A DNA stretch of 64,000 nucleotides, from contig DASPLK010000001.1 in NCBI GenBank assembly GCA_035627595.1, positions 69,619 to 133,618 on the forward strand, read 5' to 3'. A program made the translations under genes and the position numbers. The first letter of the stretch is position 1. Each line of letters begins with the position of its first letter. Below the pieces are notes generated by a model. The model was not told where the DNA came from, ran no database searches, and saw only the letters and a program-made list of their open reading frames with translations. Positions 6,571 to 40,804 of the stretch are shown here, one piece after another. The stretch is from Minisyncoccota bacterium (lineage in GTDB: Bacteria > Patescibacteriota > Minisyncoccia > Phycocordibacterales > Phycocordibacteraceae).

Positions 6571-6660
6571 CGTTGCCGTATTATACGCGCCCAGGGAAAA
6601 GGCGGAAGCGCCTAAAATCTTGCGTTTGGCAGGTCACCCTGGTACTATCCTGTGGACAAC
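6571..6660. promoter_or_regulatory. divergent dnaA/rpmH promoter region with a DnaA-box-like site
   Basis: CTTGCG-17 bp-TACTAT promoter-like hexamers on the + strand at about 6619-6647, then TGTGGACAA (rc TTGTCCACA, 8/9 DnaA box) at about 6649-6657 overlapping the rpmH leader. Confidence 0.4.
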
Positions 6661-6798
6661 ATGCCTAAGCGCACCTATCAACCAAAGAAACGCAAGCGCG
6701 CGAAGACCCACGGGTTCCGCGCACGCTCCGCTACGCCATCCGGCCGCGCGGTCTTGCTGCGCCGCCGCCGAAAGGGCCGCGCAGAGCTCGCGGTATAA
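6661..6798 (+). CDS. rpmH: 50S ribosomal protein L34
   Basis: [45 protein letters not shown]; not in the ORF track (46 aa). Confidence 0.85.
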
Positions 6799-6799
6799 C

Positions 6800-7126
6800 A
6801 TGATCCCACGCCGTCTGCGTCTCTCCAGGAAGGATTTCGAGAGTGTCGTAAGCGGAAAGGAGCTGATGCGGGCTGTGAGCCCGCATTTCTCCATTTCCTA
6901 TGGCTCCTCCCCTGCCAAAGGCGGGTGTGGGGTCGTAGTATCCAAGAAGGTGGAGCGCAGCTCCGTAAAGCGGCATTTATTGAAGCGTCGCATCCGTGAA
7001 GTGTTGAGGGAGTACTGCTCCACAGACCACATCTTCATTGTTTATGCGCGCCCAGGTGCCGAGACCCTCTCGTTTGCTGACCTTTCAGCAGAGCTCTCCG
7101 CTGAGTTAGAGCGCATACGCGCATAA
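6800..7126 (+). CDS. rnpA: RNase P protein component
   Basis: MIPRRLRLSRKDFESV... basic RnpA pattern directly after rpmH; the track ORF 6449..7126 is a composite 5' extension. Confidence 0.8.
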   Translation: MIPRRLRLSRKDFESVVSGKELMRAVSPHFSISYGSSPAKGGCGVVVSKKVERSSVKRHLLKRRIREVLREYCSTDHIFIVYARPGAETLSFADLSAELSAELERIRA

Positions 7127-7147
7127 TCTGGTACTCTTTTGAGCACT

Positions 7148-7894
7148 ATGCTCGACTTCTTCCACCAGATTCTATACGTACCGATCTATAACCTCCTTAT
7201 CTACCTTGTTGGCGTCCTACCAGGCGCCGATGTCGGTCTTGCGGTCGTTATTGTGACGCTCATCGTGAAAGCCGTAACCTTTCCCCTTTCTCTCTCTGCG
7301 GTTAAGACCCAGGCAGCAATGCGAAAGATAGAGCCAGAGCTTAAAGCGCTCCGTGAGGCCCATAAAGACGACAAACAGAAGCAGGCAGAGGAAATGTTCG
7401 CGCTCTATAAGAAGTACGGTATACGCCCATTTTCGAGCATTCTTCTTATGCTCATTCAAATTCCTGTCTTGATCACCCTCTTCCTCGTATTCCAGCGTGA
7501 ATCGATGGATGCAGTTAATCCTGAGATCCTCTATCCATTCGTTTCTGACCCAGGAGTGTTCTCCGCGCTCTTCCTCGGATTCTTCGTAATTGCAGGCCAC
7601 AACCTTATTCTTGCCGGCCTTGCTGCCATCACGCAATTCATTCAAGCCCGCTATGCTATTCCTCTCCCAGAGAAGAAGGTTCGTGATTACAGCAAGGGGC
7701 CTACAAAGGAGGAGATGGGTGCTGAGTTTGGACGCGCAATGGCTATACAAGCCCGCTTTGTGCTCCCTATTGTGGTTGGATTCGTGGCCTTCACCTCAGG
7801 CGCAGTCGCTCTCTACTTGATAACGAGTAACTTGGTAGCGCTACTGCAAGAGTTCATCGTTAGAACGTCAGGACTCAAAACAAAGACTGTATAA
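7148..7894 (+). CDS. yidC: membrane protein insertase YidC (short form)
   Basis: YidC/Oxa1 core TM pattern (IYNLLIYLVG..., KYGIRPFSSILLMLIQIPVLITLFLVF); the track start 7139 is TTG, the first ATG is at 7148; rpmH-rnpA-yidC synteny. Confidence 0.8.
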   Translation: MLDFFHQILYVPIYNLLIYLVGVLPGADVGLAVVIVTLIVKAVTFPLSLSAVKTQAAMRKIEPELKALREAHKDDKQKQAEEMFALYKKYGIRPFSSILLMLIQIPVLITLFLVFQRESMDAVNPEILYPFVSDPGVFSALFLGFFVIAGHNLILAGLAAITQFIQARYAIPLPEKKVRDYSKGPTKEEMGAEFGRAMAIQARFVLPIVVGFVAFTSGAVALYLITSNLVALLQEFIVRTSGLKTKTV

Positions 7895-7895
7895 C

Positions 7896-7921
7896 AAAAC
7901 GGCCCCAAACGGGGCCGTTTT
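7896..7921. terminator. bidirectional rho-independent terminator AAAACGGCCCC-aaac-GGGGCCGTTTT
   Basis: perfect 11 bp palindrome with flanking A/T runs between convergent yidC (+) and the 7923..9143 (-) gene. Confidence 0.6.
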
Positions 7922-7922
7922 G

Positions 7923-9143
7923 TTATAGATCGTATGCCCACAGAGAGCCGTCGAGGCGGTTTCTGAAAGTGAGCACATCATTCCTGCCGTCTGTCTTGAG
8001 GCCGGTCATATCTATCGTCGCTTCTCCTGAGGACGTCGGATCGATGAGGAGCGTTGCTACACGTCCATCCATATCAATACGCCAGAGGCGATCAGAGAAC
8101 GCCACAACTCCCTGGTACCATTCATCCGGGAGAGATCCTGTAATACCACGTGGTATGCCGCAGAAGATGGCGCGGCTGTCTGAGGACCAAGTACACTTCT
8201 CTGCAAGAGTCGCGATCGGGAGCGCTGTACTGTCCCCTGTCGCTCTATCAAGCACTGACATACGCAATGTGCGCCCATCCATGTGGGTATAAAGTACAAG
8301 GCTACCCGATGGACTCGGGAGTATGGAAAGACCGCGCAACGGACCGAGTATTCTTGTGAATGCACCGTTCGCACCCACTGTAAACGCATATCCATCTAAT
8401 GAGGCGGACGCTTTCGTATGTGCCATGTACGGGCCATCGGAAAGATGTACGGTGAGGCTCGCAAGCGGTGAGGAGAAGAGTGTGCGAGAGTTTGTGCCAT
8501 CTGCATTTGATACAGTCCCTACAGATCCTGAAGTCGATGGCATCAGAGTGAAGAGGGTCGTCGTTCCAATAACACTCGCCTGGGAAAGGCCGCGTTCGAG
8601 GAAATATCCTCCTTCCCCAGCAGCAGGAAGTGCATACGTCTCTACGCGGTCCTCCCCATCACTACCAGAAAGGAACCGTGCGTACGCGAGCGAGCCATCT
8701 GAAAGCCAAGATGCTTCCTGTATGCCTGGCAGAGTACGGTTGGCGATACGCTCTAGGGTTCGGTCGTAGAAGCGGTATGCATAGATGTTTCCACTTGCAC
8801 GGTCGATGTAACGGATCTCAACATCCCCTGGCAACGTTTCAGGTGTGCCACTAGCTGTTTCGGCTGGCACTACCTGAGACGGTAGGTCATATATAGCCAT
8901 GCCAAGTGCGACCGGGCTCTCCGTAATGCGAATGAGACGCGGTGCGACTTCCTCCCCTGCTGGAACAGGACCGGTAGCGCCCTCGGTAGGGTCTGACGGA
9001 AGCGGAACATCATCTGCTTCATCGAATGAGACCCCATCTGAAGTTGAAAGAGAAGGCTCCTTAGGGCCAAAGATCATGTAGACACCAAACCCGATACCAG
9101 CCAGGAAGATGATACTTGCGACGATAATTAGTGCGCGCTTCAT
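7923..9143 (-). CDS. membrane-anchored secreted protein, TolB/PD40-like beta-propeller repeats (hypothetical; last gene of the T4SS-like operon)
   Basis: N-terminal TM MKRALIIVASIIFLAGIGFGVYMIF; repeated W/SxDG...LAY/LVLY motifs; 3 bp from the upstream gene. Confidence 0.4.
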   Translation of the reverse strand: MKRALIIVASIIFLAGIGFGVYMIFGPKEPSLSTSDGVSFDEADDVPLPSDPTEGATGPVPAGEEVAPRLIRITESPVALGMAIYDLPSQVVPAETASGTPETLPGDVEIRYIDRASGNIYAYRFYDRTLERIANRTLPGIQEASWLSDGSLAYARFLSGSDGEDRVETYALPAAGEGGYFLERGLSQASVIGTTTLFTLMPSTSGSVGTVSNADGTNSRTLFSSPLASLTVHLSDGPYMAHTKASASLDGYAFTVGANGAFTRILGPLRGLSILPSPSGSLVLYTHMDGRTLRMSVLDRATGDSTALPIATLAEKCTWSSDSRAIFCGIPRGITGSLPDEWYQGVVAFSDRLWRIDMDGRVATLLIDPTSSGEATIDMTGLKTDGRNDVLTFRNRLDGSLWAYDL

Positions 9144-9146
9144 ACG

Positions 9147-10034
9147 TTATTCTCTGGGGCACACTGGCTTATCACTCATCTGCGCCCATGTAGCAGATGG
9201 CTCGGGTGGCGTTACAGAACTACCGTTACAACGCTTCGTGAGAACGGTGCCGCTATACGTTCCGGCCAAAACGCGTGCTTCCTGCGCCTCACACTGCTGA
9301 AGCGTGTCGAAAGATTGGTAACTTGTAAGTCGGCATTGGTCCCCGCTCTCTTCGCTTGCTAAGTTCAGGTCGAGCTTCTGGGTGCTGATATTGAACTCTG
9401 CGCCACTTGGGGGCGGTGTAGGTGGTGTGTAGTACTTGCCATGCCCACAACATACCTGGCCCTCTCCACGCGTCCCGGAGCAACAGACTGCAGTCGCATC
9501 ACCAAGCGTGACCCATCCGCCGCCAAGTACGTCGTTGCACTGCCCTCCTTGTGGAACAGTCGCGTATTGGTACTGATCATGCGTATCGTTGGTGCAGATA
9601 GGGTTTTGCGAGGGGTCGCTATTTCCTGTTCCTCCTGATGGCGCCGGCGCAGTCTCAAGAAGGTCTGCACTGAAATTAAGCTCTAGAATCTTCGGATTGA
9701 TAATACCGAAAACGATTACGGGCGAGAGTACAAGGATGAGACCGAAGACGGCGCCCTGAAGGAGTGAACGTGCCTGTTCATTCTCAGAAACGCTTCCCTT
9801 GTTGGTCATAAATAGAATGCCGGCACGGATAATCTGGAGGACTGCGATAGCGGCTGCAACGCCAATACAAATCTTATACAACTGGTTGAGAAATGATGTG
9901 ATATTCGGCGCCTCCCCTGCAGTCTCGAGGCCAGGGATGCTGGTAAGTGGTGCGAATGAGTTGTCCGTCTGGCCAAACGCAGTAGCAGGAATCAAGATGA
10001 GTGCGAGTGCGAAGAAATGGATGAGGAGTGTCAT
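9147..10034 (-). CDS. VirB2/TrbC-like T4SS pilin candidate with a Cys-rich C-terminal extension
   Basis: signal peptide MTLLIHFFALALILIPATAFGQ, then two hydrophobic helices (LYKICIGVAAAIAVLQIIRAGILF; LLQGAVFGLILVLSPVIVFGII), the pilin-type topology; about 150 aa C-terminus with more than 12 Cys (CTND..CND..CCSG..CCGHG...). Confidence 0.4.
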   Translation of the reverse strand: MTLLIHFFALALILIPATAFGQTDNSFAPLTSIPGLETAGEAPNITSFLNQLYKICIGVAAAIAVLQIIRAGILFMTNKGSVSENEQARSLLQGAVFGLILVLSPVIVFGIINPKILELNFSADLLETAPAPSGGTGNSDPSQNPICTNDTHDQYQYATVPQGGQCNDVLGGGWVTLGDATAVCCSGTRGEGQVCCGHGKYYTPPTPPPSGAEFNISTQKLDLNLASEESGDQCRLTSYQSFDTLQQCEAQEARVLAGTYSGTVLTKRCNGSSVTPPEPSATWAQMSDKPVCPRE

Positions 10035-10036
10035 AG

Positions 10037-11011
10037 CTATAGTCCGAATATACCAAGAGCGCGGTCTTCACCGAAACGAACACTGAGCGACGTATCGGCT
10101 GACTGAAAATTCTCCTCATGCCGCGCCGTTGCTGATAGGAGTGCAGAACCCCGGCCGGAGCCAGTCGCGCGGACTGTTATATCGTCGTCTCCCCCACTCG
10201 CAACTGCGTTTACAGTCCAGGAGAGTATAGGACGCGCTGCGAAGTAGTATGGAACCATACGGAAGGAATCCTCCTCACCATTCATAGCAAACGTCCCACT
10301 GAACGCTCTATCAAATATCGGTCCTAGGAGTGGGTCGTTCCTATATATACGTACCAGCGGGTCTACGGGCGCAATAGCTGCAGTCGCCTGTGCCACGACT
10401 GCACTATCTTGCGTGGATACGGTCACCGAGACATTTGCGTCGCGGTATCTGACCGGCGCAGTCGCAGTGAGTGTTGAGCGTCCAATGCCGGAGGCGCTCT
10501 CAAGGATCTGATTTCCGAGCCGCCACGTGTAGACAAGATTCTCTGCTGCGACCGCGCCATTTGCAGTGCGGATATCGGGGATAGCGATGAGCCTGACCCT
10601 GCCCTCAGACGCTACGAGACTGCCGCCCTTATAAAATGGATGCGCGGTCGAGATGGGCTCGACGATGAGCGATACGTCGGCAGGCCGAACAGCGGTCTCC
10701 GCAGTATAGGTCTGACCGTTAGAGGTTACTGATACACGTATAGTTGAACGCTCCCCTGCCGCTCCAACCTGCGTGTATGCGGTGAGGACGCCTGTGCCCT
10801 CTTCTATAACGGTCCCATTGACCGAAACAGTCACTGTGCTCGCTGCCAGATTGAGTTGGGTGCTTCTCGGGGTGATTGCAATCGTCTGGTACGGCCGCGG
10901 GTACTGCGGCGAGATAGAAATAGTTATAGGAGCCGCTCCCACTTGAGCGTGCGCGGGAATGGCACCCGCTAATGCGGAGAGGAAAAGGACACTGAGAAGC
11001 ACGCGGAACAT
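10037..11011 (-). CDS. secreted hypothetical protein (signal peptide, beta-rich)
   Basis: MFRVLLSVLFLSALAGAIPAHAQV signal; no recognised motifs; embedded in the T4SS-like operon. Confidence 0.55.
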   Translation of the reverse strand: MFRVLLSVLFLSALAGAIPAHAQVGAAPITISISPQYPRPYQTIAITPRSTQLNLAASTVTVSVNGTVIEEGTGVLTAYTQVGAAGERSTIRVSVTSNGQTYTAETAVRPADVSLIVEPISTAHPFYKGGSLVASEGRVRLIAIPDIRTANGAVAAENLVYTWRLGNQILESASGIGRSTLTATAPVRYRDANVSVTVSTQDSAVVAQATAAIAPVDPLVRIYRNDPLLGPIFDRAFSGTFAMNGEEDSFRMVPYYFAARPILSWTVNAVASGGDDDITVRATGSGRGSALLSATARHEENFQSADTSLSVRFGEDRALGIFGL

Positions 11012-11062
11012 ATGCCTAGTATAGCTTGCATGTGAGCCACTGCAGAGAGTGGGCGTGGGTAT

Positions 11063-11488
11063 CTACGCAGCTTCCTCTTGCCTGCGGGTAGTGTAATTAT
11101 CATTAGCTGCTCTCAAACGGTTGTCATTCGCTGCCTGTCGCGCTGCTTTGTTCTTAGCTGCAAGCTTCTGCGCCTTCTCTTTGTCCTCTTTGCGGGTTAG
11201 GTAGACTACCCATATCACCGCCAGAAGTTGCGTAGGAAACATATTTATTAAGGGAAACGACTCGATAATACCTGCGCCTCCCATCGCCCCAAATTTCTTG
11301 AGCGCATTTTTCCCTGACATGAACCGCACTCCGAGTATGGCAAGCCATAGCCACATAACAAATATGCCGAACCATTCCCAAATGGTGCCCAGTATCGGCA
11401 CCATGCCAGCAAAGAAGCCTATGCCCTGGAACGTGGCTGAAGTGGCTATAAGGAAGAACGCGGTCCCGCGACTAATGCGCTCGTGCAT
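11063..11488 (-). CDS. small polytopic membrane protein with a basic C-terminus (hypothetical, T4SS-associated)
   Basis: 3-4 predicted TM helices, then a K/R-rich tail; operon context. Confidence 0.45.
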   Translation of the reverse strand: MHERISRGTAFFLIATSATFQGIGFFAGMVPILGTIWEWFGIFVMWLWLAILGVRFMSGKNALKKFGAMGGAGIIESFPLINMFPTQLLAVIWVVYLTRKEDKEKAQKLAAKNKAARQAANDNRLRAANDNYTTRRQEEAA

Positions 11489-11497
11489 ACTCCCCTA

Positions 11498-13309
11498 CTA
11501 TACTCCTTCCATTCGTTCCTTCTCCTTTCGAATCGCAAGAAGCTGCGACGGATCCGAGGTAATGATCTGATCCTCGGTATAGGAGGCAACAATCTTTATG
11601 GCGACGTGCTTCATACCCGCAAAGAAGAGTCCTTCTCCGACACCAGACTCGAGGAGGAGGTACTTCTCTTCATCGGTAAGATTGAAAGTCTCTTTGAGAA
11701 TGTCGATCGTTGTTGGCGACTGCTTTAGGAGGAGCTGTATGGATGAGTTTGTAAGTATTGGCCGGCCATACGGAGAGCGGAGGAAGTCCTCTACATCTTG
11801 GGTAATTGTGGCGAGTCCCAAATAGTACTTACGCCCACGCTTAGCCATAGAGTAGAGGAAGGATGCGGTATCATCCGATTTCATCATCCACCAAGCCTCG
11901 TCGATAACGAGGAGGCGCCTCTTCAACTCTTGGCGGACTGCGTTCCAGATGTAGTGCGTAATGATATACATTGCGACCGGCTTCAGGTCGTCCTCCATAT
12001 CACGCACAGAAAAAACGATGAGCTGTTTGTTGATATCGACGTTCGTCGGGCGGTTGAGGAATCCTGACCAAGTGCCCCTCGTGTACTTTGAAAGGCGCTG
12101 TACCAATGACTCGCTTCCTTCCATACCAGACAGCACACTTTCAAAATCAGACAGCAGGGGCGGCTCCATGCCAGTGAAGTCCGCGTCACCGGTTATATCC
12201 TTGAGTGCGTATGTCTCTGTTATCGCGCGGTCGACGATGGCATCCTCTTCAGGGCTAAGGCCGCCAAGCATGATGCGGAAAAGACCAACGAGGTTAATGA
12301 TGTTCGAGCGAAGTATGTCAGAGGGCTCCTCGTCGTCCTTGACTGCTGGCAGATCAAACGGATTGATATGGTGCTCGGAAGAGAGCGAGATATTAAATGT
12401 GCGGCCACCTGTCGCCTGCGCGAGGTACTCGTATTCTCGCTCCGGATCGATGACTATGACGTCCGTCTCAAACATGAGTGAGCGCAATACTTCGAGCTTC
12501 ACGGCGTAGCTCTTTCCAGAGCCGGACTTTGCGAACACGACCGAGTTGTAGTTCTCAAGCGAGAATCGATCGAAGAGCACCAGGGAGGCATTGTGGCGGT
12601 TGATGCCGTAGAGAATTCCCCTATCTGAGGTAAGGTCGAATGAGACGAATGGGAAGAGCGAGGATAGAGGCGAGGAATTGAGCTTCGAGTGCGAATTCAA
12701 TTCATCAACAGCGAGCGGAAGCGTAGAGCGGTAACCCTGCTCCTGCTGGAACAGAGCCGGCTTTGTATAGACGAGCTTCGCATCAAGAATGCCGCGTATC
12801 TCTGCCTCCACCTTATCGAGATCTTCCTTCGTACTTCCGTACACAGTTATATAAAGACCCACCTCAAAGAGACGCTCCTGTGCTTGCTGGAGCTGGTCGC
12901 GCAACTCTTCGAGATCTCGGTATGCGGTATCAAGCATAGGGTCGCGCACAAAGCCCTTCTCTTCCCTTTCAGCAATCTGGCTCTGCACTTCCGCAACCTT
13001 CTTTTGAAAGTTTCGCATTACAAGACTCGTATCAAGTGGATGTATATGGATGGATACATCAAGTTGCTTGGAGAGATTGATGATGGGGGTAAACCAGCTA
13101 TCGGACAGGAAGCGCGGATACGAAATCGTATAAAAGGTACGCGAGAACTTCTCTCCTATCTCAAGTTCCCGTGAGCCGACCTTAAGCGCTGCAGGTGCGA
13201 TGGTGTCTGCGAGGTCGAGCTCGCCTGCGGCATAGATATCAGCTGGCAGGACCGGTGTTATTTCCGGTCCATCTTGATTTTTCTTGCTAAAGAAGTCGAG
13301 TAGGGCCAT
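11498..13309 (-). CDS. virB4: VirB4/TrbE/CagE-family T4SS ATPase (C-terminal 603 aa including the NTPase domain)
   Basis: Walker A VVFAKSGSGKSYAV, Walker B LLVIDEAWWMM, VirB4 N-domain-like pattern near MALLDFF...; same frame as the upstream ORF, separated only by TAA. Confidence 0.85.
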   Translation of the reverse strand: MALLDFFSKKNQDGPEITPVLPADIYAAGELDLADTIAPAALKVGSRELEIGEKFSRTFYTISYPRFLSDSWFTPIINLSKQLDVSIHIHPLDTSLVMRNFQKKVAEVQSQIAEREEKGFVRDPMLDTAYRDLEELRDQLQQAQERLFEVGLYITVYGSTKEDLDKVEAEIRGILDAKLVYTKPALFQQEQGYRSTLPLAVDELNSHSKLNSSPLSSLFPFVSFDLTSDRGILYGINRHNASLVLFDRFSLENYNSVVFAKSGSGKSYAVKLEVLRSLMFETDVIVIDPEREYEYLAQATGGRTFNISLSSEHHINPFDLPAVKDDEEPSDILRSNIINLVGLFRIMLGGLSPEEDAIVDRAITETYALKDITGDADFTGMEPPLLSDFESVLSGMEGSESLVQRLSKYTRGTWSGFLNRPTNVDINKQLIVFSVRDMEDDLKPVAMYIITHYIWNAVRQELKRRLLVIDEAWWMMKSDDTASFLYSMAKRGRKYYLGLATITQDVEDFLRSPYGRPILTNSSIQLLLKQSPTTIDILKETFNLTDEEKYLLLESGVGEGLFFAGMKHVAIKIVASYTEDQIITSDPSQLLAIRKEKERMEGV

Positions 13310-13312
13310 ATG

Positions 13313-13945
13313 TTATGCGAAACGGATAGGGTTTTCATGCTCGCTCGGATTGAAAGAGCGGTATAGAAGCTCGATGATCTCCTCGGTACCAAGCGGCACG
13401 GCACGGACGCCGCTTCCCTGAAGCGCGCTTCCTACGAGCGCCATGCGCTGCTCAAGCTGCACACGAAATTGCACGAACTCATCCGTTCCTTCGCCAGTAG
13501 GCGCTGCACCGGCCTCCTTCTTTATGAACGGCAGTGCGCCAGAGACGGCAGTAACAGCAGCTGGGCTGTAGGGTACGACGACATAGAAGAGCTTCGTCAT
13601 AATGTCTGTTCCTTCTATGAATGAACTAATGAACTGCATGTACTCTCGAAGCTGGATGCGCATAAGCTCGGAGGACTGCTTGTCTGCGCGTTCCTCAAGA
13701 AGTGCGAGGTAAGGACGGATATCTATCTTTCTAGACTGTACGACTATTTCGACCGAGAAATCGAGCGTGTTGAGGAAGTTTTGGAAACCGCCTATGATAG
13801 CGCGCTGCTCATCCTCAGACTTAAGTGCGAAGTTCACTGATGAGCACATGAGAATACCGCGGTATCCTCCATCCTTAAGGATTACTACGCCGTTACGTAT
13901 TTCCTTAACCGGTACGAACTCTTGAGCTGCGCGTGCTGCGGGCAT
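13313..13945 (-). CDS. VirB4 N-terminal-like fragment (210 aa), separated from the ATPase ORF by a single in-frame TAA
   Basis: VPVKEIRNGVVILKDGGYRGILMCSSVNFALKSEDEQRAIIGGFQNFLNTLDFSVEIVVQS resembles the VirB4/TraC N-terminus; stop TAA at 13313-13315, then CAT, then ATG 13307-13309 in frame; combined about 813 aa, a typical VirB4 length. Confidence 0.5.
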   Translation of the reverse strand: MPAARAAQEFVPVKEIRNGVVILKDGGYRGILMCSSVNFALKSEDEQRAIIGGFQNFLNTLDFSVEIVVQSRKIDIRPYLALLEERADKQSSELMRIQLREYMQFISSFIEGTDIMTKLFYVVVPYSPAAVTAVSGALPFIKKEAGAAPTGEGTDEFVQFRVQLEQRMALVGSALQGSGVRAVPLGTEEIIELLYRSFNPSEHENPIRFA

Positions 13946-13947
13946 GA

Positions 13948-14361
13948 TTAAGAGGCGTTACTATCCTTAATATCCAAGGACCATGCGAGCTCATGGAGCT
14001 TGTTCTGCGAAAGCCCAAGCTTCTGTCTCGTTTCGACCGCAGGCGTAGGCGGGACAGGCATAGTCTGCACCTGAGTCTTCTTCTCTACCCTTTTCCAGAG
14101 GTATAGGCGGCTTCCAAGGTAATAATTAAAACCCGACTCGAGCACGTCGAGGAACGGTCGATTGTTTACCTTGTAAAACGCGAGCGCAAGCGTGAAAATC
14201 GCGAGCGGAATAGCAAGCGCGATGCCAATGATACGTGGGAGATAGAGTACGAGCACGGCGCAGAGACCAAAACCGCCAGCAACGTAAACAAACTGCTTGA
14301 TAGAAAGCGGGCCGAATACTTTCTCTTCGACCTCAATGAACTGTGGTACTTGGTACTCCAT
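13948..14361 (-). CDS. PrgI/VirB3-like small membrane protein
   Basis: 137 aa, two TM helices (FVYVAGGFGLCAVLVLYL; IGIALAIPLAIFTLALAFY), directly upstream of VirB4 as in Gram-positive-type T4SS. Confidence 0.5.
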   Translation of the reverse strand: MEYQVPQFIEVEEKVFGPLSIKQFVYVAGGFGLCAVLVLYLPRIIGIALAIPLAIFTLALAFYKVNNRPFLDVLESGFNYYLGSRLYLWKRVEKKTQVQTMPVPPTPAVETRQKLGLSQNKLHELAWSLDIKDSNAS

Positions 14362-14407
14362 TGCCTACATAGTATAGCAACACCCCGCAAGAAAGCGGGG
14401 TGTGCGT

Positions 14408-15127
14408 TTAAAATGGTTCGCGATACGGATCTGCCGCGTAGTCTTTCGTGAGCGGTGTGCGCTGCCCTTCTTCAGTCGGTAGGTTTGGCGGTGGCGGTGG
14501 CGGTTCCCACGCGGTGACTGGAGGAGGCGCTGGACGTTCGATCACCGGCTCCGGAACAGGCGGTGGCGGTGGCGGTGGCGCGGGAGGCTGTTGTGGAGCT
14601 TGGTACTGCAGCGGTGGCTGGGTGGTCATGTATGGCTGCGGCACAGCGGTAATTGATACCGGAACCCAGTATGTCTGTTGCTGAGCGCCTGGAATTGGTG
14701 GCGTATATACAGGCTGCGGCTGTTGCGGGACCTGATACTGAGGTGGTGCCTCTATTTGGGAAGGTGGAGAAACAGGACGTGGTGGTTCGGGGCGTCTCTC
14801 CGATTGCTCCTGCTCTTTTCGACGCAAGGGCTTGAATACCATCTCATTCACATCAGTAGTGAGTCCATTGATTGAAGGCTCAGGGATACCGGCTTCACGT
14901 AGAGAATCTCTAAACTCATCTGGTGTCTTTACTCCAAGCAGCATTTGAAGATACGCGCGTTCGAAATCCCCAGCCTGGTCAGCATGAAGACCGTATTTCT
15001 GCATGAGTTCGAGCGCAACACGGTCGCGCTCAGGGCTCATAACGAATTCCCGGATCGGTTCAGGTATCCGCAGCAGCGCCGTGGCAACTGCGTCATCGAC
15101 ATTGCTAAGCTGCTGAGGTTCATCCAT
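14408..15127 (-). CDS. proline-rich hypothetical protein (helical N-domain plus about 130 aa of P/Q-rich low-complexity sequence)
   Basis: ...APPPPPPPVPEPVIERPAPPPVTAWEPPPPPP; no TM segment; operon member. Confidence 0.5.
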   Translation of the reverse strand: MDEPQQLSNVDDAVATALLRIPEPIREFVMSPERDRVALELMQKYGLHADQAGDFERAYLQMLLGVKTPDEFRDSLREAGIPEPSINGLTTDVNEMVFKPLRRKEQEQSERRPEPPRPVSPPSQIEAPPQYQVPQQPQPVYTPPIPGAQQQTYWVPVSITAVPQPYMTTQPPLQYQAPQQPPAPPPPPPPVPEPVIERPAPPPVTAWEPPPPPPNLPTEEGQRTPLTKDYAADPYREPF

Positions 15128-15154
15128 ACCTCTATTGTATACGATGTGTGATCA

Positions 15155-17608
15155 CTAGTGACCACCACCGTGCCCATCGTCCTTCTTTGCGGCACCATGA
15201 CTGTCACCCGACGCCCCGTTCTTCTGCTGAGCCTTGAGTGCGTCCGCAAGTTTCTCTATCTCCCCCTTATTAATATTCTTAATAATCTTCTCCTTCGCAT
15301 GATGGTCGGCGTCCGGGCCTATGGTCTGACCGTAGGCAAATTTCGCTGTCGCATTAACGAGCCCGCCCTCTTTGCCCGGCATTTCACCCATTCGCTCAGC
15401 GTATACGCGCTGCGGCGCTGACTTGAGATCTTTCTTCGCAGCCTCCTGACCTGCGATCCACTGCTTCTGGCGTGCTTCCTCTGCAGCGCGCTCCTTATTC
15501 TGCTCTTCAGTCAGGCGCTTATACTTCTCGTTTAGATTGCTGATAGCAGTCTCAGCGGCGCTCACCGCAGCTTGATTGCCACGCGCTCGCGCATCCGCAG
15601 CTTCCTTCTCGCGCTCCTTAATTTCATCCCGTATTGGTGTGCGCTCGCTCCGATGGCGTACATCCATATCATTAAGAACCTCGGCGTCCTTTTGCTTCTT
15701 TGTAGCTATCTGCGTGTCAATTTCCTTTATTATTGTAGTCTCCTCCGCCGTGTTCTTTAGGTCCTTAGAGTACTTTTCGCGTTCCTCTTCAGCATGATGA
15801 ACGATTCCTGCGTATCCACCCTTCTTCGCGTCGCCAAGTTTTAGGTGCGCAGCACCAGCAGCGCCACTCACAATCTTAGAGGCGCGAGGATCAAAGCTTG
15901 ATTTAGCACCTGAATCAAGACCGCCAACAACCATCTTGCCAAGACCGCTACGGCCGAATTCGGTATGCCTGAGTTTGTCAGCCTGTTTGTACATGGCACG
16001 CCCGGCTGTTCTCCTACCTACAAACCCCATACCGCCCATTACCACGCCACTCGCTTTACTGGTCGCGAAGCTCGCGCCCATAGCTCCAAGGCTACTTGCG
16101 ATCATTAAAGAACCAACCATAAACCCGATTATGAGGAAGAAGAGAATGAATATGCCGCCCGTACCAGCACCTCCAGCAGCAAACGCCTGAACAAGGGATG
16201 CGCCTGTAGTATTAAATGTACTTTGAGCCCCCTCCATTATCTTCAGTCCAACAAAAAGCATAAGAAGGAATAATGGAGCAAAGAACGCTTGGGAGATGAG
16301 CTTGTTCCACCACATCTTGGAATACTCTTCGAACTGCGGGATTGCTGTTGCGGCGAACCCAAGAGGAGATATCACCAAAAGGAACATAAGGGTTACTGCA
16401 CGGATAATGAGCATGATGGAGGCGGCAATAAATACCACCATCATGACAATGATGAGTATGAGAAGGCCTGTGTAGGTTAGGAGCATCCCAAGTCCGTCGG
16501 TAGCAGTCCAAATGGCGCCCAGGCTTCTGAACCCTTCAAATGAGAATATGCTGCCCATCCCAGCAGCCGCAAGAATCTTTCCTGAGATACCATCACCAAC
16601 GCACTCTGCCGGCGTGCCGCCGCTTGCAATAGTTCCTGCATCCCCACCGCAGTTCACATTTCCAGCTTCTGTATAGAACGCTGCGCTAAAAACGTTTGCA
16701 ACATCCACAATTGCAGACGACACAAGAAGGCTGAAGTTGATAAGAATGGCAAAGATAAGGAGGCGTGGCAGTGCCTTTCCGACACTGAAGTGTCCAACGT
16801 TAAGAATGGTCTGAATACCGATGAATATAAATCCAAAGAGAAGAAGTATGTTGCCAAGATCTCGAAGCACGCTCCATGCGACGAGAAGACCAGGAGAGTT
16901 ACCGAAGTAAGTGCTGTATTGGAAGACTGTGACAAGCACAATCCAGTTGAACAGCATGCCAAACACACCAAGGAGTGCGCCAAGTACTGAGACAAGAATC
17001 CAAAGTACAGATGCGCCAAGCTTACCTATGATGCTGCCGAGACAATCAGACAAGTTTCCCCCGATTAAACTACAACTGTCAGTTCCCGCAGCGCCATCTA
17101 CCTGTTGAACAGATTGAGTGCCACCATTCCCATCTGGAACTTCCGTGACGGTTACATTTGCAATATCAGACTGCCGACCAATCTCAGTGCCATCGGGTAG
17201 TACAACCTCTGCAACAATTTTCTGGGAAGCGAGATCATCCTCAAACCAAAGCGTATATCGATTATCACTAAATGTGACCCTACAATTCTCTAGCGAGTCT
17301 CGATTCGTGACTCGATAGGTACAGATAGAGGTAATGGTGACCGCCGGATTAGTCCCTAGCTCTAAGCCTTGATGAGTACAATTAGGCTCATCGTTCGGGG
17401 TGTTACAAAGGACAGCTTCAAACTGCTGCTGGGTAAAACCTACAGCATTGGGTCTTGCCTGTTCTTTAGGGAAAGAGGGCCACGTGGGTAGCGCAGTCTG
17501 CGCCTGAGACGCGCTTGGAAGGAACGCAAACCCACTAACGAGAACCGCAGCGGTCGCGAACGCGACCCCTGCTTTTCCTAGCCAACCTTTGAAGCGCGAT
17601 ACCCGCAT
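15155..17608 (-). CDS. VirB6/TrbL-like polytopic membrane protein with N-terminal extracellular domain and long charged/coiled-coil C-terminus
   Basis: signal peptide, about 200 aa ectodomain, at least 6 TM helices (LGASVLWILVSVLGALLGVFGMLF...), then a K/E/A-rich tail of about 300 aa ending GGGH. Confidence 0.55.
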   Translation of the reverse strand: MRVSRFKGWLGKAGVAFATAAVLVSGFAFLPSASQAQTALPTWPSFPKEQARPNAVGFTQQQFEAVLCNTPNDEPNCTHQGLELGTNPAVTITSICTYRVTNRDSLENCRVTFSDNRYTLWFEDDLASQKIVAEVVLPDGTEIGRQSDIANVTVTEVPDGNGGTQSVQQVDGAAGTDSCSLIGGNLSDCLGSIIGKLGASVLWILVSVLGALLGVFGMLFNWIVLVTVFQYSTYFGNSPGLLVAWSVLRDLGNILLLFGFIFIGIQTILNVGHFSVGKALPRLLIFAILINFSLLVSSAIVDVANVFSAAFYTEAGNVNCGGDAGTIASGGTPAECVGDGISGKILAAAGMGSIFSFEGFRSLGAIWTATDGLGMLLTYTGLLILIIVMMVVFIAASIMLIIRAVTLMFLLVISPLGFAATAIPQFEEYSKMWWNKLISQAFFAPLFLLMLFVGLKIMEGAQSTFNTTGASLVQAFAAGGAGTGGIFILFFLIIGFMVGSLMIASSLGAMGASFATSKASGVVMGGMGFVGRRTAGRAMYKQADKLRHTEFGRSGLGKMVVGGLDSGAKSSFDPRASKIVSGAAGAAHLKLGDAKKGGYAGIVHHAEEEREKYSKDLKNTAEETTIIKEIDTQIATKKQKDAEVLNDMDVRHRSERTPIRDEIKEREKEAADARARGNQAAVSAAETAISNLNEKYKRLTEEQNKERAAEEARQKQWIAGQEAAKKDLKSAPQRVYAERMGEMPGKEGGLVNATAKFAYGQTIGPDADHHAKEKIIKNINKGEIEKLADALKAQQKNGASGDSHGAAKKDDGHGGGH

Positions 17609-17612
17609 AGCG

Positions 17613-19001
17613 CTATGTCCTACCGCACAGTTTTGCCTTTTCCGTCATCTGCATATATAGAGAGTCTCCTCCCTCACCGCTTGTGCGGCTTTCAGTTTGT
17701 GAGCGTGCAAGGTCGCTCGCAGTCGGCATCGTATTAGCCATGAGTTGCTGGTACTCAGTTGAGACCTCCTCAAGTGCTGCGATCTGGTTGCCGCCTGCGG
17801 CATTATTTGCCGCAGCAAGCTTGGTGGTGAGAGAGTCGATGCCTGCAACCGCTGCGTCGGCGCGTGCAATCGCTGCGGCCGACTCGGTAAGTACAGCTTG
17901 AACTTCGGAGTCGTTGGTACAACTTGCCGCGGCCTGCGCTGCGCCCTGAATCTTCTGCCAATTAGACTTATGCGTCTCCACTTGGCCGCGCTGGTTGCGT
18001 AGGGTCTGCGTGAAGGTTGCGTTCGCCCCCTGCGCGTTTGTCTGGTCAGAACTTGATGCGCGATCAATGTATGAAGAGCCGCCGCCGGAACTAGGCTGCG
18101 TAAGTCCGCCAAGTCCGCTGCCGCCAAGAATGTTCGAAGTAAGCTGTGCAAGAAGTGCGCCGACGATCTCATTGAACTCATCAGCAAGACCGAGCTGGTC
18201 AAGCTGGGATCCGAGGGTCTTCTCGAGTTGGCCCTCAATGACGGCGCCCGGGGTCTGAATCTCTCCGCCCGCACACTCACTTTCTGCGCCAGAGAGATCT
18301 ACAGTTTCATCGCCTGCTGATGAACTGGTAGTACACTCACCGCGCCAGGAAAGGAATCCCCTACCCCATTCAAGCTCGGTGCGACGTTGATCCTCTGCAC
18401 TTGAGACACGGCTGCCAAGCTCATGCTGTGCTTCATGGAGCGCACCAATAGGATTGTTCTGTGGATTTCTCCATGCCTCAATCCAAGCGTCCCATCCGCC
18501 CTTAGAGAAATCACCCGCAAGAAATGCGTTCGGATCTTCTGACACCTCATTAAGAGTGAAGCGGTTTGTGTTGAAATAAGAGCCTGAGCCGGTCGAGCGG
18601 AAGTAATCATCACGCACTGCCTGCACAATATCGTCCCTGAATGGTGAATCTATCTCGTTCCGGTCGCGCAACTCCTCAAAGAAATCGTCGGCAACACGGT
18701 CCCCTACCCTAAGCAAGTTACGGTTGAGGTCAGTTACATATGCAGGAGAGCCGTCAAAGCCTGAATTGATCCAGTTAACAGTGCTCTTGGTGACGGATTG
18801 GAGCGCAGACCGTGCCATGGTCCACGCGATCGCATCGAGACCACCTTCCTTTAGCATGTCCCAGCCCTGAGATGCCGCTGTTATGGTGTTCTGGATGAGG
18901 TTTATCGGGTCTTGAACGATAAACTGCGCATGCGTCGTGCGCGGTACGCTCGTAAAGAGAAGCGCTGCTACAAGAAGAAGTGCAAGTGGTGTGCGGATCA
19001 T
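17613..19001 (-). CDS. secreted hypothetical protein (462 aa), T4SS-associated
   Basis: signal peptide MIRTPLALLLVAALLFTSVPRTTHAQ; Gly/Ser-rich linker; C-terminal A/Q-rich helical region; 4 nt from the VirB6-like gene. Confidence 0.55.
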   Translation of the reverse strand: MIRTPLALLLVAALLFTSVPRTTHAQFIVQDPINLIQNTITAASQGWDMLKEGGLDAIAWTMARSALQSVTKSTVNWINSGFDGSPAYVTDLNRNLLRVGDRVADDFFEELRDRNEIDSPFRDDIVQAVRDDYFRSTGSGSYFNTNRFTLNEVSEDPNAFLAGDFSKGGWDAWIEAWRNPQNNPIGALHEAQHELGSRVSSAEDQRRTELEWGRGFLSWRGECTTSSSAGDETVDLSGAESECAGGEIQTPGAVIEGQLEKTLGSQLDQLGLADEFNEIVGALLAQLTSNILGGSGLGGLTQPSSGGGSSYIDRASSSDQTNAQGANATFTQTLRNQRGQVETHKSNWQKIQGAAQAAASCTNDSEVQAVLTESAAAIARADAAVAGIDSLTTKLAAANNAAGGNQIAALEEVSTEYQQLMANTMPTASDLARSQTESRTSGEGGDSLYMQMTEKAKLCGRT

Positions 19002-20026
19002 AGGCTTGGTACGGCAGCCGCCGCATCTTTAGCGCCCTTTACGAAGAAGTATCCGGTCGCACCCTGACCGATAGAGATGCCGTTGCCAGAGAAAAGTGTA
19101 TTAAGTTCTGCATACGCGCGCACCATCTGATCTGCTGCGCTTTTGTACTCGCTCATACCGAGCATGCCACGAAGTGGATCATTTTCTACGCTTGTCATGT
19201 TCTCGACGACAGTGCCCATGTATGCGATTGCATTTACAAAATTGAGGTGTGCCGACTGCGCTTCGTTTGGTACAGATATTTGAATGAGTGCAGCTGCAAT
19301 ATTTGTGTACGCACGAGAAATAGCACGCACTTGATTCATCGCACCCTCGTCTCCCTTCTGAACTGCTTCGGTGAAGTAGAAAAGTTCATTCTGGTCAGTG
19401 TCGACCGTGTTTTGTGTAAATGCTTCTTCCGCAGCGATAGCATATGCGCGGAGTGCCTCCTGTCCTGAACCTGAGACACGCACGCTTCCAAGTGAGTATG
19501 CCTTTACTGCTCGCTGCTTCGCGGCAAGGTCTGCGAGCGCATCCTGCATGAACGCATCTATCTCCTCTGCGGTCGGCGGGACGCCGCTTCGTGAGTTCAT
19601 GTAGTTTGTGAACAGGTCACGCGCAAATGCTCCGGTAACGGTATTGGCATCTGCATCAACGCCAGGGACGGTCACTTCGCCAGCAAGACCTGAAAGGTCG
19701 GTGCGGAACTTCGGCTCAAGGAGCCCTTGAGAGGAAGCTTCCCCATCGGTCATCTCAAGGCTGAACGAGTGCGCGTTATCAGGATCGGTTCCGTACAGTG
19801 ATTCCTGCCAATCCGGCAAGCCATCACTATCTGTGTCGCGCGAAGAGAACGCACGGAGAAGTTCCTCGGTTGACTCAGCGCCTGCGAGCTTTGAGGAAAA
19901 AATGGAAGGGCCCGAGAGCGCGTACGCGAGCGTCATCAATGCTCCCGTTATCACGAGCGAGCCGATGATGCGCAGGGTCCGCGTAGAAAGTGGAAGAGTA
20001 GGCACTATATATATGGTATCACGCAC
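18998..20026 (-). CDS. bitopic membrane protein (N-in TM plus about 290 aa ectodomain), possible VirB8-like component
   Basis: TM LRIIGSLVITGALMTLAYAL; the start at 20026 is GTG and the exact start is unsure; overlaps the next gene by ATGA. Confidence 0.45.
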   Translation of the reverse strand: MRDTIYIVPTLPLSTRTLRIIGSLVITGALMTLAYALSGPSIFSSKLAGAESTEELLRAFSSRDTDSDGLPDWQESLYGTDPDNAHSFSLEMTDGEASSQGLLEPKFRTDLSGLAGEVTVPGVDADANTVTGAFARDLFTNYMNSRSGVPPTAEEIDAFMQDALADLAAKQRAVKAYSLGSVRVSGSGQEALRAYAIAAEEAFTQNTVDTDQNELFYFTEAVQKGDEGAMNQVRAISRAYTNIAAALIQISVPNEAQSAHLNFVNAIAYMGTVVENMTSVENDPLRGMLGMSEYKSAADQMVRAYAELNTLFSGNGISIGQGATGYFFVKGAKDAAAAVPSL

Positions 20027-20062
20027 AAGTTGTGCGCTTCACTACTTGTACATGTGTATTAC

Positions 20063-20848
20063 TCAATCCTTGAGCGACTCCGCAAGTGCGGTCCATCCAG
20101 CAAGCGGTACATCTTCTGGACGGATATCCTCGTGAAGCAGGGCTGCGGCAAAGGCTTCCTGAATATCCCCTTTCTCCGCGACTGCCTCGAGGTTCTTCAT
20201 AAGCCGCTTCCTTTTATGTGCGAATCCAGCGCGGAGAATAGCAAAAAAGCGTGCTTCCTGGTTGGGGCTTTGAAACGTCGCAGTGATATCTCGTACCGAA
20301 AGTACGGCAGAATCTACCTTTGGTGCAGGCACAAAGGCGCCTTTCGGGACGGTGAACTCATACTTAGGCGTGCCATATGCCTTCACGGATAGAGATAAAA
20401 GGCTCTCTTTCTCGCTTCTCGCGACCCGCTCGGCAACCTCCTTCTGAACGAGGAGTGTCATGGATGAGGGTTTATGGGTGGTTGTTAAGAACTGGCGGAC
20501 GATCTCACCAGTGATGTAGTACGGGATATTGGCGACCAGTAGATAGGGGCCGTCTATAGTACTTGGGTCAAACTTCCGTACGTCTATATGTATAAGGACC
20601 AGCTTTCCGCTAGCTATCTCTTCCGCAAAGGTAGCTTCTAACCGCGGGATGAGTTCAGCATCGGTCTCAACCGCATATACCTTCCCTGCCTTTGCTAGGA
20701 GCTCACGTGTCAGTACGCCAGTGCCTGGTCCGATCTCGAGCACGGTATCTCTTTCAGTTACATTTGCCGCAAGCACAATACGCTCACTCGTCTGGCGGTG
20801 CATTAGAAAATGTTGACCGAGCCCTTTCTTTGCAGAGAGATGCATCAT
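20063..20848 (-). CDS. rsmA: 16S rRNA (adenine1518/1519-N6)-dimethyltransferase RsmA/KsgA
   Basis: GQHFL motif, SAM-binding EIGPGTGVLT, NIPY motif. Confidence 0.85.
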   Translation of the reverse strand: MMHLSAKKGLGQHFLMHRQTSERIVLAANVTERDTVLEIGPGTGVLTRELLAKAGKVYAVETDAELIPRLEATFAEEIASGKLVLIHIDVRKFDPSTIDGPYLLVANIPYYITGEIVRQFLTTTHKPSSMTLLVQKEVAERVARSEKESLLSLSVKAYGTPKYEFTVPKGAFVPAPKVDSAVLSVRDITATFQSPNQEARFFAILRAGFAHKRKRLMKNLEAVAEKGDIQEAFAAALLHEDIRPEDVPLAGWTALAESLKD

Positions 20849-22761: not shown

Positions 22762-22885
22762 ACTATACTCGCTGACCCCGTTATCCCCCTAGTTTTGATA
22801 CTGGCATCCCTTCACATATCCCCGAAAGTGGGTCGTAGCTCGTTTTCAACATCTCTTCATACAAACCGTTGACCCGACACTTGAG

Positions 22886-22915
22886 CACGGTATACTTCCC
22901 TAGTCGTCTGATACG
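22886..22915 (+). promoter_or_regulatory. candidate sigma70-like promoter TTGACC-16 bp-TATACT
   Basis: hexamers in the divergent uvrD/M23 intergenic region; followed by a short hairpin AATGGCTTA-gg-TAAGCCATT plus TTTTG at 22925-22952. Confidence 0.3.
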
Positions 22916-23023
22916 GTTGATTGAAAGAATGGCTTAGGTAAGCCATTTTGTATTCTGAAGAAACGCTGAAGTGCCTACTCCCGACTTATAACGTCTTTCA
23001 ATAAAACTTCCGATTCCACCCTT

Positions 23024-29480: not shown

Positions 29481-29535
29481 TGAACCACTATAGCAATAGC
29501 GTACGGCAGTAATAGTCGTGCGATAGAATAAACAC

Positions 29536-34046: not shown

Positions 34047-34095
34047 CAAGTACCACGTCACCCAGGCTTTAGCGTTGGTTGTGTATACCCGAAGT

Positions 34096-40725: not shown

Positions 40726-40780
40726 ATTTGCGGAGGGGATAGCGGTGTTTCTCATAGATACGCATAGTACCAAAATTGAG

Positions 40781-40804
40781 AGGGATAGGAAAAAACCGCG
40801 GTTT
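40781..40804 (-). terminator. minus-strand terminator CCGCGG-aaaa-CCGCGG plus T5
   Basis: self-complementary CCGCGG pair; lies between the small membrane ORF and clpP. Confidence 0.45.

Follow-up and report, generated by a model that had tools for sequence, protein, structure and literature searches.

An operon derived from a type IV secretion system (T4SS) lies next to the replication origin genes in a Minisyncoccota bacterium (contig DASPLK010000001.1, positions 69,619 to 133,618; this stretch of 64,000 nucleotides is referred to here as the window). Eleven intact, co-directional open reading frames (ORFs) occupy positions 7923-20026 on the minus strand, and are named g2 to g12 in the order of transcription. 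Their products are 342, 462, 817, 239, 137, 210, 603, 141, 324, 295 and 406 amino acids (aa) long from g2 to g12. Coding sequence makes up 98.8% of the interval, and the intergenic gaps range from -4 to 51 nt. A co-directional minus-strand operon of T4SS origin had been proposed in an earlier note made from the sequence of the window alone, and this is borne out. The proposal of “eleven or twelve” genes with gaps of 3-46 nt and two ATGA overlaps needs adjustment: the genes number eleven, the gap range is wider, and only one of the overlaps (g2/g3) is within the cluster, the other being just upstream, between uvrD and rsmA. The genes uvrD and rsmA precede g2 on the same strand, while yidC (which is convergent), rnpA, dnaA and dnaN lie beyond g12, with a distance of 1.35 kb from g12, the last gene, to dnaA. 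Where g12 and yidC converge there is a hairpin with a perfect 17-bp stem (7890-7927), which is the strongest terminator-like site within 6500-23200 and is likely to be a bidirectional terminator that ends the operon.

The public record of the same contig has identical gene calls (406, 295, 324, 141, 603 and 210 aa). The NCBI locus tags (VEA92_) advance one gene per step across the cluster, and in the NCBI annotation g3 (VEA92_00555), g9 (VEA92_00525) and g10 (VEA92_00520) are labelled “hypothetical protein” of a “Candidatus Paceibacterota” metagenome-assembled genome (MAG). The G+C content of the cluster (0.51-0.54) is the same as that of the rest of the window. The concern, raised in the earlier note, that some of the ORFs could be frameshift fragments can be set aside, since full-length orthologues of each cluster ORF are found in dozens of species. 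Within the cluster, TATAC[TA]- or TATAGT-like boxes occur 8-16 nt 5' of the ATG of g5, g6, g10 and g9 (in the gaps 15128-15154, 14362-14407, 11012-11062 and 11489-11497, respectively), and there are small hairpins in the g5-g6 gap (CACCCCGC...GCGGGGTG) and the g9-g10 gap. The boxes may be internal promoters with very short leaders, dividing the cluster into sub-operons.

The best recognisable T4SS components are encoded by the adjacent genes g6, g7 and g8. The 603 aa g8 protein (11498-13309, minus strand) is the body of a VirB4 ATPase of the CD1110/MPF_FATA type. It scores 386.9 bits against the NCBIfam model conju_CD1110 (cutoff 325) over model positions 184-733, matches P-loop_TraG with E = 1.9e-24, and has intact Walker A (AKSGSGKS) and Walker B (LLVIDE) motifs. 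The 210 aa g7 protein (13313-13945, minus strand) is TrsD/TraC-like, and corresponds to the N-terminal domain of VirB4 as a gene of its own. It matches the N-terminal regions of VirB4 models, namely the mycoplasma VirB4 model Mbov_0397 (positions 105-233, E = 1.1e-7) and CD1110 (positions 2-104), as well as TrsD/TraD (E = 1.1e-3) and, in a precomputed record, the TraC-like family PF26593. By these matches VirB4 is split over two genes, with g7 as the N-domain and g8 as the ATPase; the single VirB4 ATPase of the earlier note was thus correct for g8 but incomplete. The 137 aa g6 protein (13948-14361, minus strand) belongs to the PrgI/VirB3 family of membrane proteins (PF12666, E = 7.1e-9, 36.5 bits against a cutoff of 27), and is the expected membrane anchor of VirB4. 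Both VirB4 and PrgI/VirB3 had been correctly recognised before.

Relatives of the locus were collected by a VirB4 scan of one genome per GTDB species, and the 80 best VirB4 matches define the loci L001-L080, in which synteny was followed by tblastn with all cluster and flanking proteins. The scan gave at least 568 relatives of g8. The best 80 of these, MAG-derived without exception, are 74-93% identical to it. Where a taxon name is given, it is always that of a Patescibacteria lineage (Paceibacterota, Parcubacteria, Kaiserbacteria and others); the clade placement of VirB4 given here is by these nearest relatives. The g6 gene was found in 76 of the 80 loci, directly 5' of g7, and g7 in 79; the order g6-g7-g8 is kept wherever the locus extends far enough. 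The two-gene arrangement of g7 and g8, with a gap of 1-12 nt, occurs in most of the 79 loci, and this conservation rules out a frameshift artefact as the origin of the split.

Two further core components are assigned mainly through their orthologues. The g4 gene (15155-17608, minus strand) encodes an 817 aa polytopic membrane protein with eight hydrophobic segments, arranged as a signal or anchor segment, an outer N-domain of ~180 aa that contains cysteines, ~7 transmembrane (TM) segments and a charged coiled-coil C-domain of ~290 aa. This layout is that of an “extended VirB6”, suggesting a VirB6-like channel protein. The window protein has no Pfam match on its own, and its profile gave no useful match to PDB sequences. 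Of 44 orthologues, however, five match the TrbL/VirB6 family PF04610 (best E = 1.9e-7) and one matches TrbL_4, and it is by way of these orthologues that the VirB6/TrbL-like assignment made in the earlier note finds support. Profiles of ten cluster proteins were also compared by hhalign with twelve Prg/Pcf proteins of pCF10 and eleven proteins of R388 and R751, and a weak match of g4 to pCF10 PrgH over 113 columns ranked third among these 230 comparisons. The invariant residues of g4 are W245, R249, D250, N253 and N291-F292-S293.

The g11 gene (9147-10034, minus strand) encodes a VirB2/TrbC-type T4SS pilin of 295 aa. A signal peptide and two hydrophobic helices take up residues ~1-115, and are followed by an unusual Cys-rich C-terminal extension of ~180 aa with 11 cysteines. 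The window protein scores 25.1 bits against T4SS_pilin (PF18895, cutoff 26.6) and matches TrbC with E = 6e-4. Among 45 orthologues, 37 match T4SS_pilin (best E = 3e-11) and 18 match TrbC/VirB2, in support of the pilin candidate named previously; comparison of the g11 profile with PDB sequences gave no useful match.

The gene order of the whole region is strongly conserved. At 67 loci six or more genes were detected, and in 62 of these the order uvrD-rsmA-g2...g12-yidC/rnpA-dnaA-dnaN is colinear with that of the window. The five exceptions (L013, L038, L047, L068 and L075) have g11 after g12, which is the sole rearrangement in the block. Colinearity persists even where DnaA is only ~53% and DnaN ~37% identical to the window proteins. 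The median identity is 76% for VirB4, 57% for DnaA and 39% for DnaN, and wherever both VirB4 and DnaA are present (55 loci) VirB4 has the higher identity, a degree of constraint that is unusual for a secretion ATPase. Detection by tblastn succeeded for g6, g7, g8, g10 and g12 in 67-80 of the 80 loci, and for g2-g5 and g11 in 24-51 of them, partly due to contigs that are short on that side. On account of the colinearity and of the conservation of VirB4 relative to DnaA, the cluster is a core locus, passed on vertically beside the replication origin, and not a mobile element. The earlier note had already placed it in a housekeeping, non-mobile setting and had proposed a comparison of synteny with related genomes; the result of that comparison is far stronger than the sequence by itself allowed. 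Six accessory partners are co-inherited with the core as a fixed set, and four of them are exported or anchored outside. Describing the machine as “minimal”, as was done before, is a stretch, since all eleven genes belong to the conserved block.

Outside the cluster, 30 ORFs of the window of at least 225 aa, including every ORF of at least 450 aa, were scanned against Pfam. No VirD4/TcpA coupling protein, relaxase or VirB11 was found among these 30 ORFs, in agreement with what had been noted for the window. The only T2SSE ATPase among them carries an MshEN domain and adjoins PilC, and is for these reasons the PilB of a type IV pilus and not VirB11. The type IV pilus genes of the window, at 43502-47085 on the plus strand and 28920-29630 on the minus strand, encode PilB (T2SSE and MshEN), PilC (T2SSF) and a prepilin with an N-methylation motif, and there is a second PilB-like ATPase just upstream of the window (positions 5466-7136 of L083).

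The missing relaxase and coupling protein bear on whether the locus could be part of an ordinary conjugative element (an integrative and conjugative element or an integrated plasmid) that has its relaxase, coupling protein and origin of transfer outside the window. The VirB4, PrgI and TrsD families are named after Gram-positive conjugative elements, a tyrosine recombinase is encoded 8 kb away (28002-28919), and in a survey of 3,035 Patescibacteria genomes, of which 2,417 have VirB4, homologues of the VirD4-like type IV coupling protein (T4CP) are present in most genomes, far from virB4 (Quinonero-Coronel et al. 2025, Microb Genom 11:001409; PMC12102498). The usual signatures of a conjugative element, i.e. 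patchy spread, a border integrase and a compositional break, were nevertheless not found. The block is bordered by rsmA and yidC, with no integrase or repeats at these borders, and the recombinase has the two-domain layout of XerC/D, with housekeeping genes between it and the cluster. The order from rsmA to dnaA is retained across loci in which DnaN has diverged to the extent given above, VirB4 evolves more slowly than DnaA, and relaxases were found in only 103 of the 3,035 surveyed genomes, with only 15 near virB4 (PMC12102498). We therefore consider a conjugative element very improbable.

The absence of VirB1, VirB8 and VirD4 from the cluster, together with a VirB4 in two pieces, might also be expected of a decaying remnant of an ancient T4SS acquisition that has no current function. 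This is extremely improbable: all eleven ORFs are intact and densely packed, the Walker motifs are present, the split of VirB4 is conserved, and few proteins of the region are as conserved as VirB4. In addition, the homologous genes of Southlakia epibionticum are essential (Wang et al. 2023, Cell 186:4803; PMC10633639).

Of the accessory proteins, g3 (17613-19001, minus strand; 462 aa) is a candidate for a VirB5/TrbJ-like component. It is a secreted protein with a signal peptide ending in AHAQ, and its predicted structure is all-helical with a confident C-terminal bundle, at an overall predicted local distance difference test score (pLDDT) of 68. Of 60 family members, 13, 3 and 2 are matched weakly at the N-terminus by three NCBIfam TrbJ models, and there is no second family that turns up repeatedly. 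The best TrbJ score is 19.6 bits against a cutoff of 225 (PRK13874), covering positions 7-45 only, and g3 is below the curated thresholds of the TrbJ and VirB5 models. In the hhalign comparisons g3 with R751 TrbJ was the top pair of the 230 and the only one that stood out (E = 2e-4, probability 46%), with the signal peptide and a “V.D..NL.QN..TA” motif aligned; the expected pairs g6-PrgI and g4-PrgH followed weakly, and g3 with R388 VirB5 was fifth. The g3 gene ends 4 nt before g4, and the g3-g4 order is found in every colinear locus in which both were detected. This is also the order of trbJ-trbK-trbL in R751 and of virB5-virB6 (trwJ-eex-trwI) in R388. A Foldseek search with the predicted fold gave no match below E = 0.1, and the g3 profile gave nothing useful against PDB sequences. 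Taken together, these similarities and the gene order make a VirB5-like role of g3 plausible, at about an even chance. The VirB5-like helical bundle that had been suggested among the unassigned proteins is to this extent weakly supported by the N-terminal TrbJ match, with family thresholds not reached.

Directly after virB4 lies g9 (11063-11488, minus strand), which encodes a small membrane protein of 141 aa with three hydrophobic segments, a conserved E-x2-P-x-[ILV]-N-x2-P segment and a charged tail ending in AANDNRLRAANDNYTTRRQEEAA. The C-terminal tail of the window protein is AANDNYTTRRQEEAA (gene 3' end, 11063-11110). According to the positive-inside rule, this basic tail should be cytoplasmic. 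The protein diverges too fast for detection by tblastn, and a word-index homologue search found only four proteins; an exhaustive HMMER search was used instead, and gave 658 cluster representatives at E <= 1e-3. Of the 152 members examined (the listed HMMER hits plus two close homologues), 66 end in AA, 27 of these in EAA, and 27 of the 152 end in AAND-x6-13-AA. An [AP]ND motif is present in 44 of the AA-ending members, and in 31 of these 44 the last such motif is 12-15 residues from the C-terminus. At the syntenic loci, 22 of 44 positional orthologues of g9 end in AA compared with 2 of 708 control proteins from the same loci, and AAND occurs in 15 of the 44 tails, against a mean of 0.16 after shuffling. 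The tail pattern can be written as AAND[NDE]-x6-10-[ERKQ]AA-COOH, with a length of 13-16 residues and sometimes a second AAND and an “EEIP” motif. Tag-like tails were found in the same slot after virB4 in L005, L011, L015, L020, L022, L033, L035, L037 and others, and 43 of the 79 loci that hold both flanking genes have a small protein with at least two hydrophobic segments in this slot. A role for g9 as a second VirB3 or pilin was also considered and rejected, as it has no similarity to PrgI, VirB3, TrbD or VirB2. One sublineage has no room for g9, virB4 overlapping or abutting g10 with a gap of -3 to ~50 nt (L038, L039, L041, L043, L045-L048, L051-L053, L056-L058 and others); here the gene has been either lost or relocated.

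The g9 tail resembles the SsrA tags that mark proteins for proteolysis, for which the sequences are AANDENYALAA in E. coli and AANDNFAEEFAVAA in Caulobacter. The two are alike in the opening motif, the length and the terminal Ala-Ala. They differ in that the SsrA tag is added by trans-translation, whereas the g9 tail is encoded in its own gene, and in that the residue before the terminal AA is mostly charged in g9 and is Leu or Val in the SsrA tag. A search of the window, of 60 loci and of the 8.6 kb that precede the window (L083) for the transfer-messenger RNA (tmRNA) of this organism gave no ssrA gene, and no smpB motif was found either. No tmRNA tag sequences of Patescibacteria were found in the literature. 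The window does contain a ClpP gene (40147-41046, minus strand). The ClpP protein has an N-terminal extension of ~115 residues, its Pfam match covering positions 120-298 of 299, which may reflect an over-called start codon or a real extra domain.

The other accessory proteins differ in topology and predicted fold, and the earlier view that the accessory proteins carry no family assignment is confirmed. The first gene of the cluster, g2 (18998-20026, minus strand), encodes a bitopic protein of 342 aa with an N-terminal TM segment at residues 20-38. Its ectodomain is acidic and probably helical, and opens just outside the membrane with a TSP3-type calcium-binding repeat (residues 64-82). The TSP3_bac family matches 17 of 24 g2 orthologues (best E = 2.8e-10) and the window protein with E = 0.02, and the sole match of the g2 profile in the PDB is a biofilm surface protein, in its TSP3 region (E = 3e-4). 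By tblastn, g2 was found in 24 of the 80 loci, several loci being too short to include it. No similarity of g2 to VirB8 or VirB10 was found by hhalign.

A Pro-rich protein of 239 aa without TM segments or signal peptide is encoded by g5 (14408-15127, minus strand). In an alignment of 31 orthologues it consists of a conserved helical N-domain of ~110 aa, a variable Pro-rich linker (22% Pro) and a C-terminal “DPYREP” (14408-14440 in the window). This terminal motif is near-invariant, while the length of the linker varies from ~40 to ~200 residues. Neither g5 nor its orthologues match any Pfam family. The DPYREP motif looks like a short docking peptide, and from its layout g5 is probably a cytoplasmic adaptor or tether.

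The products of g10 and g12 appear to be extracytoplasmic. In its predicted structure the secreted g10 protein (10037-11011, minus strand; 324 aa) has three tandem Ig/FN3-like beta-sandwich domains, and we tentatively describe it as a protein of three Ig-like domains. The name “ribosomal protein L31”, given by JGI to some of its homologues, such as P0162 and P0187, is a misannotation that stems from a chance weak match (E ~0.01), and is spurious because g10 is secreted and made up of these Ig-like domains. The last gene of the operon, g12 (7923-9143, minus strand), encodes an N-terminally anchored beta-propeller of 406 aa. The g12 profile matches eleven TolB entries in the PDB with E = 3e-3 to 6e-3, consistent with the PD40-like propeller that had been recognised before; PD40 itself is matched by only 2 of 49 orthologues, and there is an invariant Cys pair, C317 and C328. 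The propeller is tentatively classed as TolB-like. For g2, g3, the N-domain of g4, g10, g11 and g12, the cues to an extracytoplasmic location are signal peptides or anchors, and further cues are the Ig-like folds, the TolB-like profile, the TSP3 repeat and the conserved Cys pairs.

The hhalign comparisons gave no match in the cluster to VirB8, VirB1, VirB9, VirB10, PrgL, PrgK, TrwG or TrbF. The probabilities for R388 VirB8, R751 TrbF and pCF10 PrgL against the cluster profiles were all ~1% or less. A structural check for the NTF2 fold covered the models of g3, which is helical, and g10, which is Ig-like. The hidden VirB8 fold suspected among the unassigned proteins therefore finds no support in these profiles and models, and neither does a cell-wall hydrolase fold, as no VirB1 or PrgK match was obtained. 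Beyond uvrD and divergent from it, a LysM-LysM-peptidase M23 cell-wall hydrolase is encoded at 23024-24064 on the plus strand (Peptidase_M23 4.6e-28, LysM 1.8e-22). This protein is a possible stand-in for VirB1 that would supply the wall-cutting activity, which is consistent with the VirB1-like proteins with M23 and LysM domains that were reported near virB4 in Paceibacteria (PMC12102498). A good sigma-70-like promoter precedes the hydrolase gene at 22869-22896.

Among the other genes of the window, ORFs at 24575-26140 (minus strand, 521 aa) and 49422-50849 (plus strand, 475 aa) match no Pfam family at E <= 0.001. Two paralogous Exo_endo_phos nucleases or phosphatases (29536-30327 and 34075-34869, both on the plus strand) are encoded within 5 kb of each other and flank a tRNA cluster (Arg, Gly, Pro, Gly).

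The system to which the locus belongs has already been published, between 2023 and 2025. The find is real, but it is not new except in the details of the accessory subunits, and the novelty suggested in the earlier note does not hold, the same conclusions having been reached, both for the Patescibacteria at large and for the Paceibacteria specifically, in three publications (PMC12102498, PMC10633639 and PMC12857230). In the survey of Quinonero-Coronel et al. the VirB4 proteins of Patescibacteria form a monophyletic clade inside MPF_FATA, with TrsD, PrgI/VirB3, VirB6 and VirB2-like pilins near virB4, VirB8 and VirB1 mostly undetectable, and no VirB5 in the clade; in Paceibacteria the cluster is near dnaA, dnaN, rnpA and ksgA (rsmA) (PMC12102498). 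The present locus agrees in the points compared: a VirB4 of MPF_FATA type preceded by a TrsD-like protein and PrgI/VirB3, a VirB2-like pilin close by, neither relaxase nor T4CP beside virB4, and the position by dnaA, dnaN, rnpA and ksgA; for VirB6 it has a candidate in g4. The survey left the other neighbours “grey”, whereas here they are resolved into a conserved block of eleven genes, with tentative folds or motifs for g2, g3, g5, g9, g10 and g12. All of the new additions (the g3 motif, the Ig domains of g10, the TolB-like g12 and the tail of g9) are tentative.

The T4SS of Southlakia epibionticum ML1 (SEML1_0006-0019), a member of the class Saccharimonadia, is likewise chromosomal, origin-proximal and similar to Gram-positive conjugation systems, and has pilin genes. 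It differs in having six divergent pilins and in having peptidase and lysozyme genes right after virB4, while at the present locus there is a single pilin, which bears a long Cys-rich extension, and virB4 is followed by the small membrane protein, the Ig-like protein and the propeller. With the Gram-positive MPF_FATA systems (Prg/Pcf of pCF10 and Trs of pGO1 and pSK41) the locus shares a VirB4 of the CD1110 family, PrgI and, as a candidate, a VirB6 of PrgH type; pGO1 too has TrsD as a separate N-domain protein, and neither those systems nor the locus have an outer-membrane core complex. However, the MPF_FATA systems have VirD4 (PcfC), a relaxase, the VirB1 hydrolase PrgK, VirB8-like PrgL/PrgD and LPXTG adhesins, none of which was detected here, and they are without a pilin, in contrast to the VirB2-type pilin of this locus. 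The Gram-negative MPF_T systems (VirB, Trw and Trb) share the VirB2/TrbC pilin and a secreted helical protein with a TrbJ-like N-terminus encoded directly 5' of the VirB6 or VirB6-like gene. Unlike MPF_T, this locus lacks VirB11 and the outer-membrane complex of VirB7, VirB9 and VirB10; its g3 has twice the length of VirB5 and is below the family thresholds, and VirB2 does not have the 180-aa extension of the g11 pilin.

We consider it probable that the locus is the Paceibacteria version of the Patescibacteria-clade T4SS, chromosomal and vertically inherited, derived from a monoderm MPF_FATA conjugation apparatus and no longer conjugative. VirB4 hexamers docked on VirB3 and VirB6 would supply the power to pull pilin out of the membrane and to polymerise it into a fibre or conduit at the cell surface. 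In this arrangement g3 would sit on the VirB6 platform and at the tip of the fibre, and the Cys-rich extension of the pilin would decorate the exterior of the fibre. The g2, g10 and g12 proteins would build or protect the route across the wall and touch the host cell, while g5, as a tether, and g9, as a regulator controlled by turnover, would act at the cytoplasmic side. Most likely, the machine would mediate contact-dependent exchange of macromolecules with a host bacterium, with export or import of protein more likely than DNA as the cargo. Exchange with a host fits the requirement for the homologous system in S. epibionticum, whose T4SS, which has no recognisable coupling protein or relaxase, was shown by transposon sequencing (Tn-seq) to be essential for epibiotic growth (PMC10633639). 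A 2025 FEMS review describes these systems as the first T4SS found to be essential to the organism that carries them, and as the first monoderm ones that may form pili (PMC12857230).

The main rival to this account is a DNA-uptake (competence-type) T4SS, like ComB of Helicobacter or the archaeal Ced system, which would take up host or environmental DNA as a source of nucleotides or genes. As in import systems, neither a relaxase nor a coupling protein was found among the scanned ORFs of the window, and VirB4 has weak matches to the archaeal DNA-import ATPases CedB (E = 3.9e-9) and CedD (1e-3), although these cover the shared P-loop region only, are far below the cutoffs, and are not accompanied by any ComB- or Ced-specific component. 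Genes of DNA metabolism flank the cluster (uvrD, dnaA, dnaN), the T4SS loci of class ABY1 sit with comF, recG and radA (PMC12102498), and these organisms cannot make nucleotides (PMC12857230 and PMC10633639). Transformation of S. epibionticum, however, needs comEC, the deletion of which abolishes competence but leaves the cells viable, in contrast to the essential T4SS (PMC12857230); the essential role is thus not DNA uptake through ComEC. On balance, DNA uptake as the function of this locus is improbable.

Several points weigh against the host-contact account. The VirB6-like (g4) and pilin (g11) proteins of the window are below the Pfam cutoffs by themselves. The loci were picked on VirB4 similarity, so that the identity of VirB4 is inflated relative to that of the other genes. 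The comparisons by hhalign found no VirB8- or VirB1-like component in the cluster that would account for the crossing of the wall. The link between g3 and VirB5 involves ~40-50 N-terminal residues including the signal peptide (with the probability of 46% given above), and the match of g3 to a fold of this kind, the elongated three-helix bundle of TraC (1r8i), is nonspecific. For g2, g5, g9, g10 and g12, the accessory roles derive only from fold, topology and co-inheritance. The function is extrapolated from one species of Saccharibacteria. Finally, a VirD4-like protein may well be encoded elsewhere in this genome, as in most Patescibacteria (PMC12102498), and the machine may then transfer DNA or coupled substrates.

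A more specific version of the host-contact account can be drawn from the sequences of g3 and g9. In this version the Paceibacteria T4SS would be a pilus-building host-contact machine, in which a VirB5-like g3 forms the tip or stalk beside the extended VirB6 of a monoderm, and g9 is handed continuously to the proteolysis of SsrA-tagged proteins (by ClpXP or FtsH), so that its turnover gates assembly or activity. A VirB5-like tip or stalk in a monoderm system and a self-encoded look-alike of the tag in g9 would both be undescribed for any T4SS. We regard this combined version as rather unlikely, but if the g9 tail does act as a degron, a secretion machine would be controlled in an unusual way.

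Few machines have been shown to be indispensable to these ultra-small bacteria as epibionts, and the T4SS of Patescibacteria is among them. The locus described here does not add a new kind of system. It consists of the known core and six co-inherited partners, each of which is now given a testable label, and these labels for the accessory proteins are, once a culture of Paceibacteria with a host is open to manipulation, starting points for the prediction of complexes, the interpretation of cryo-electron tomography and genetics.

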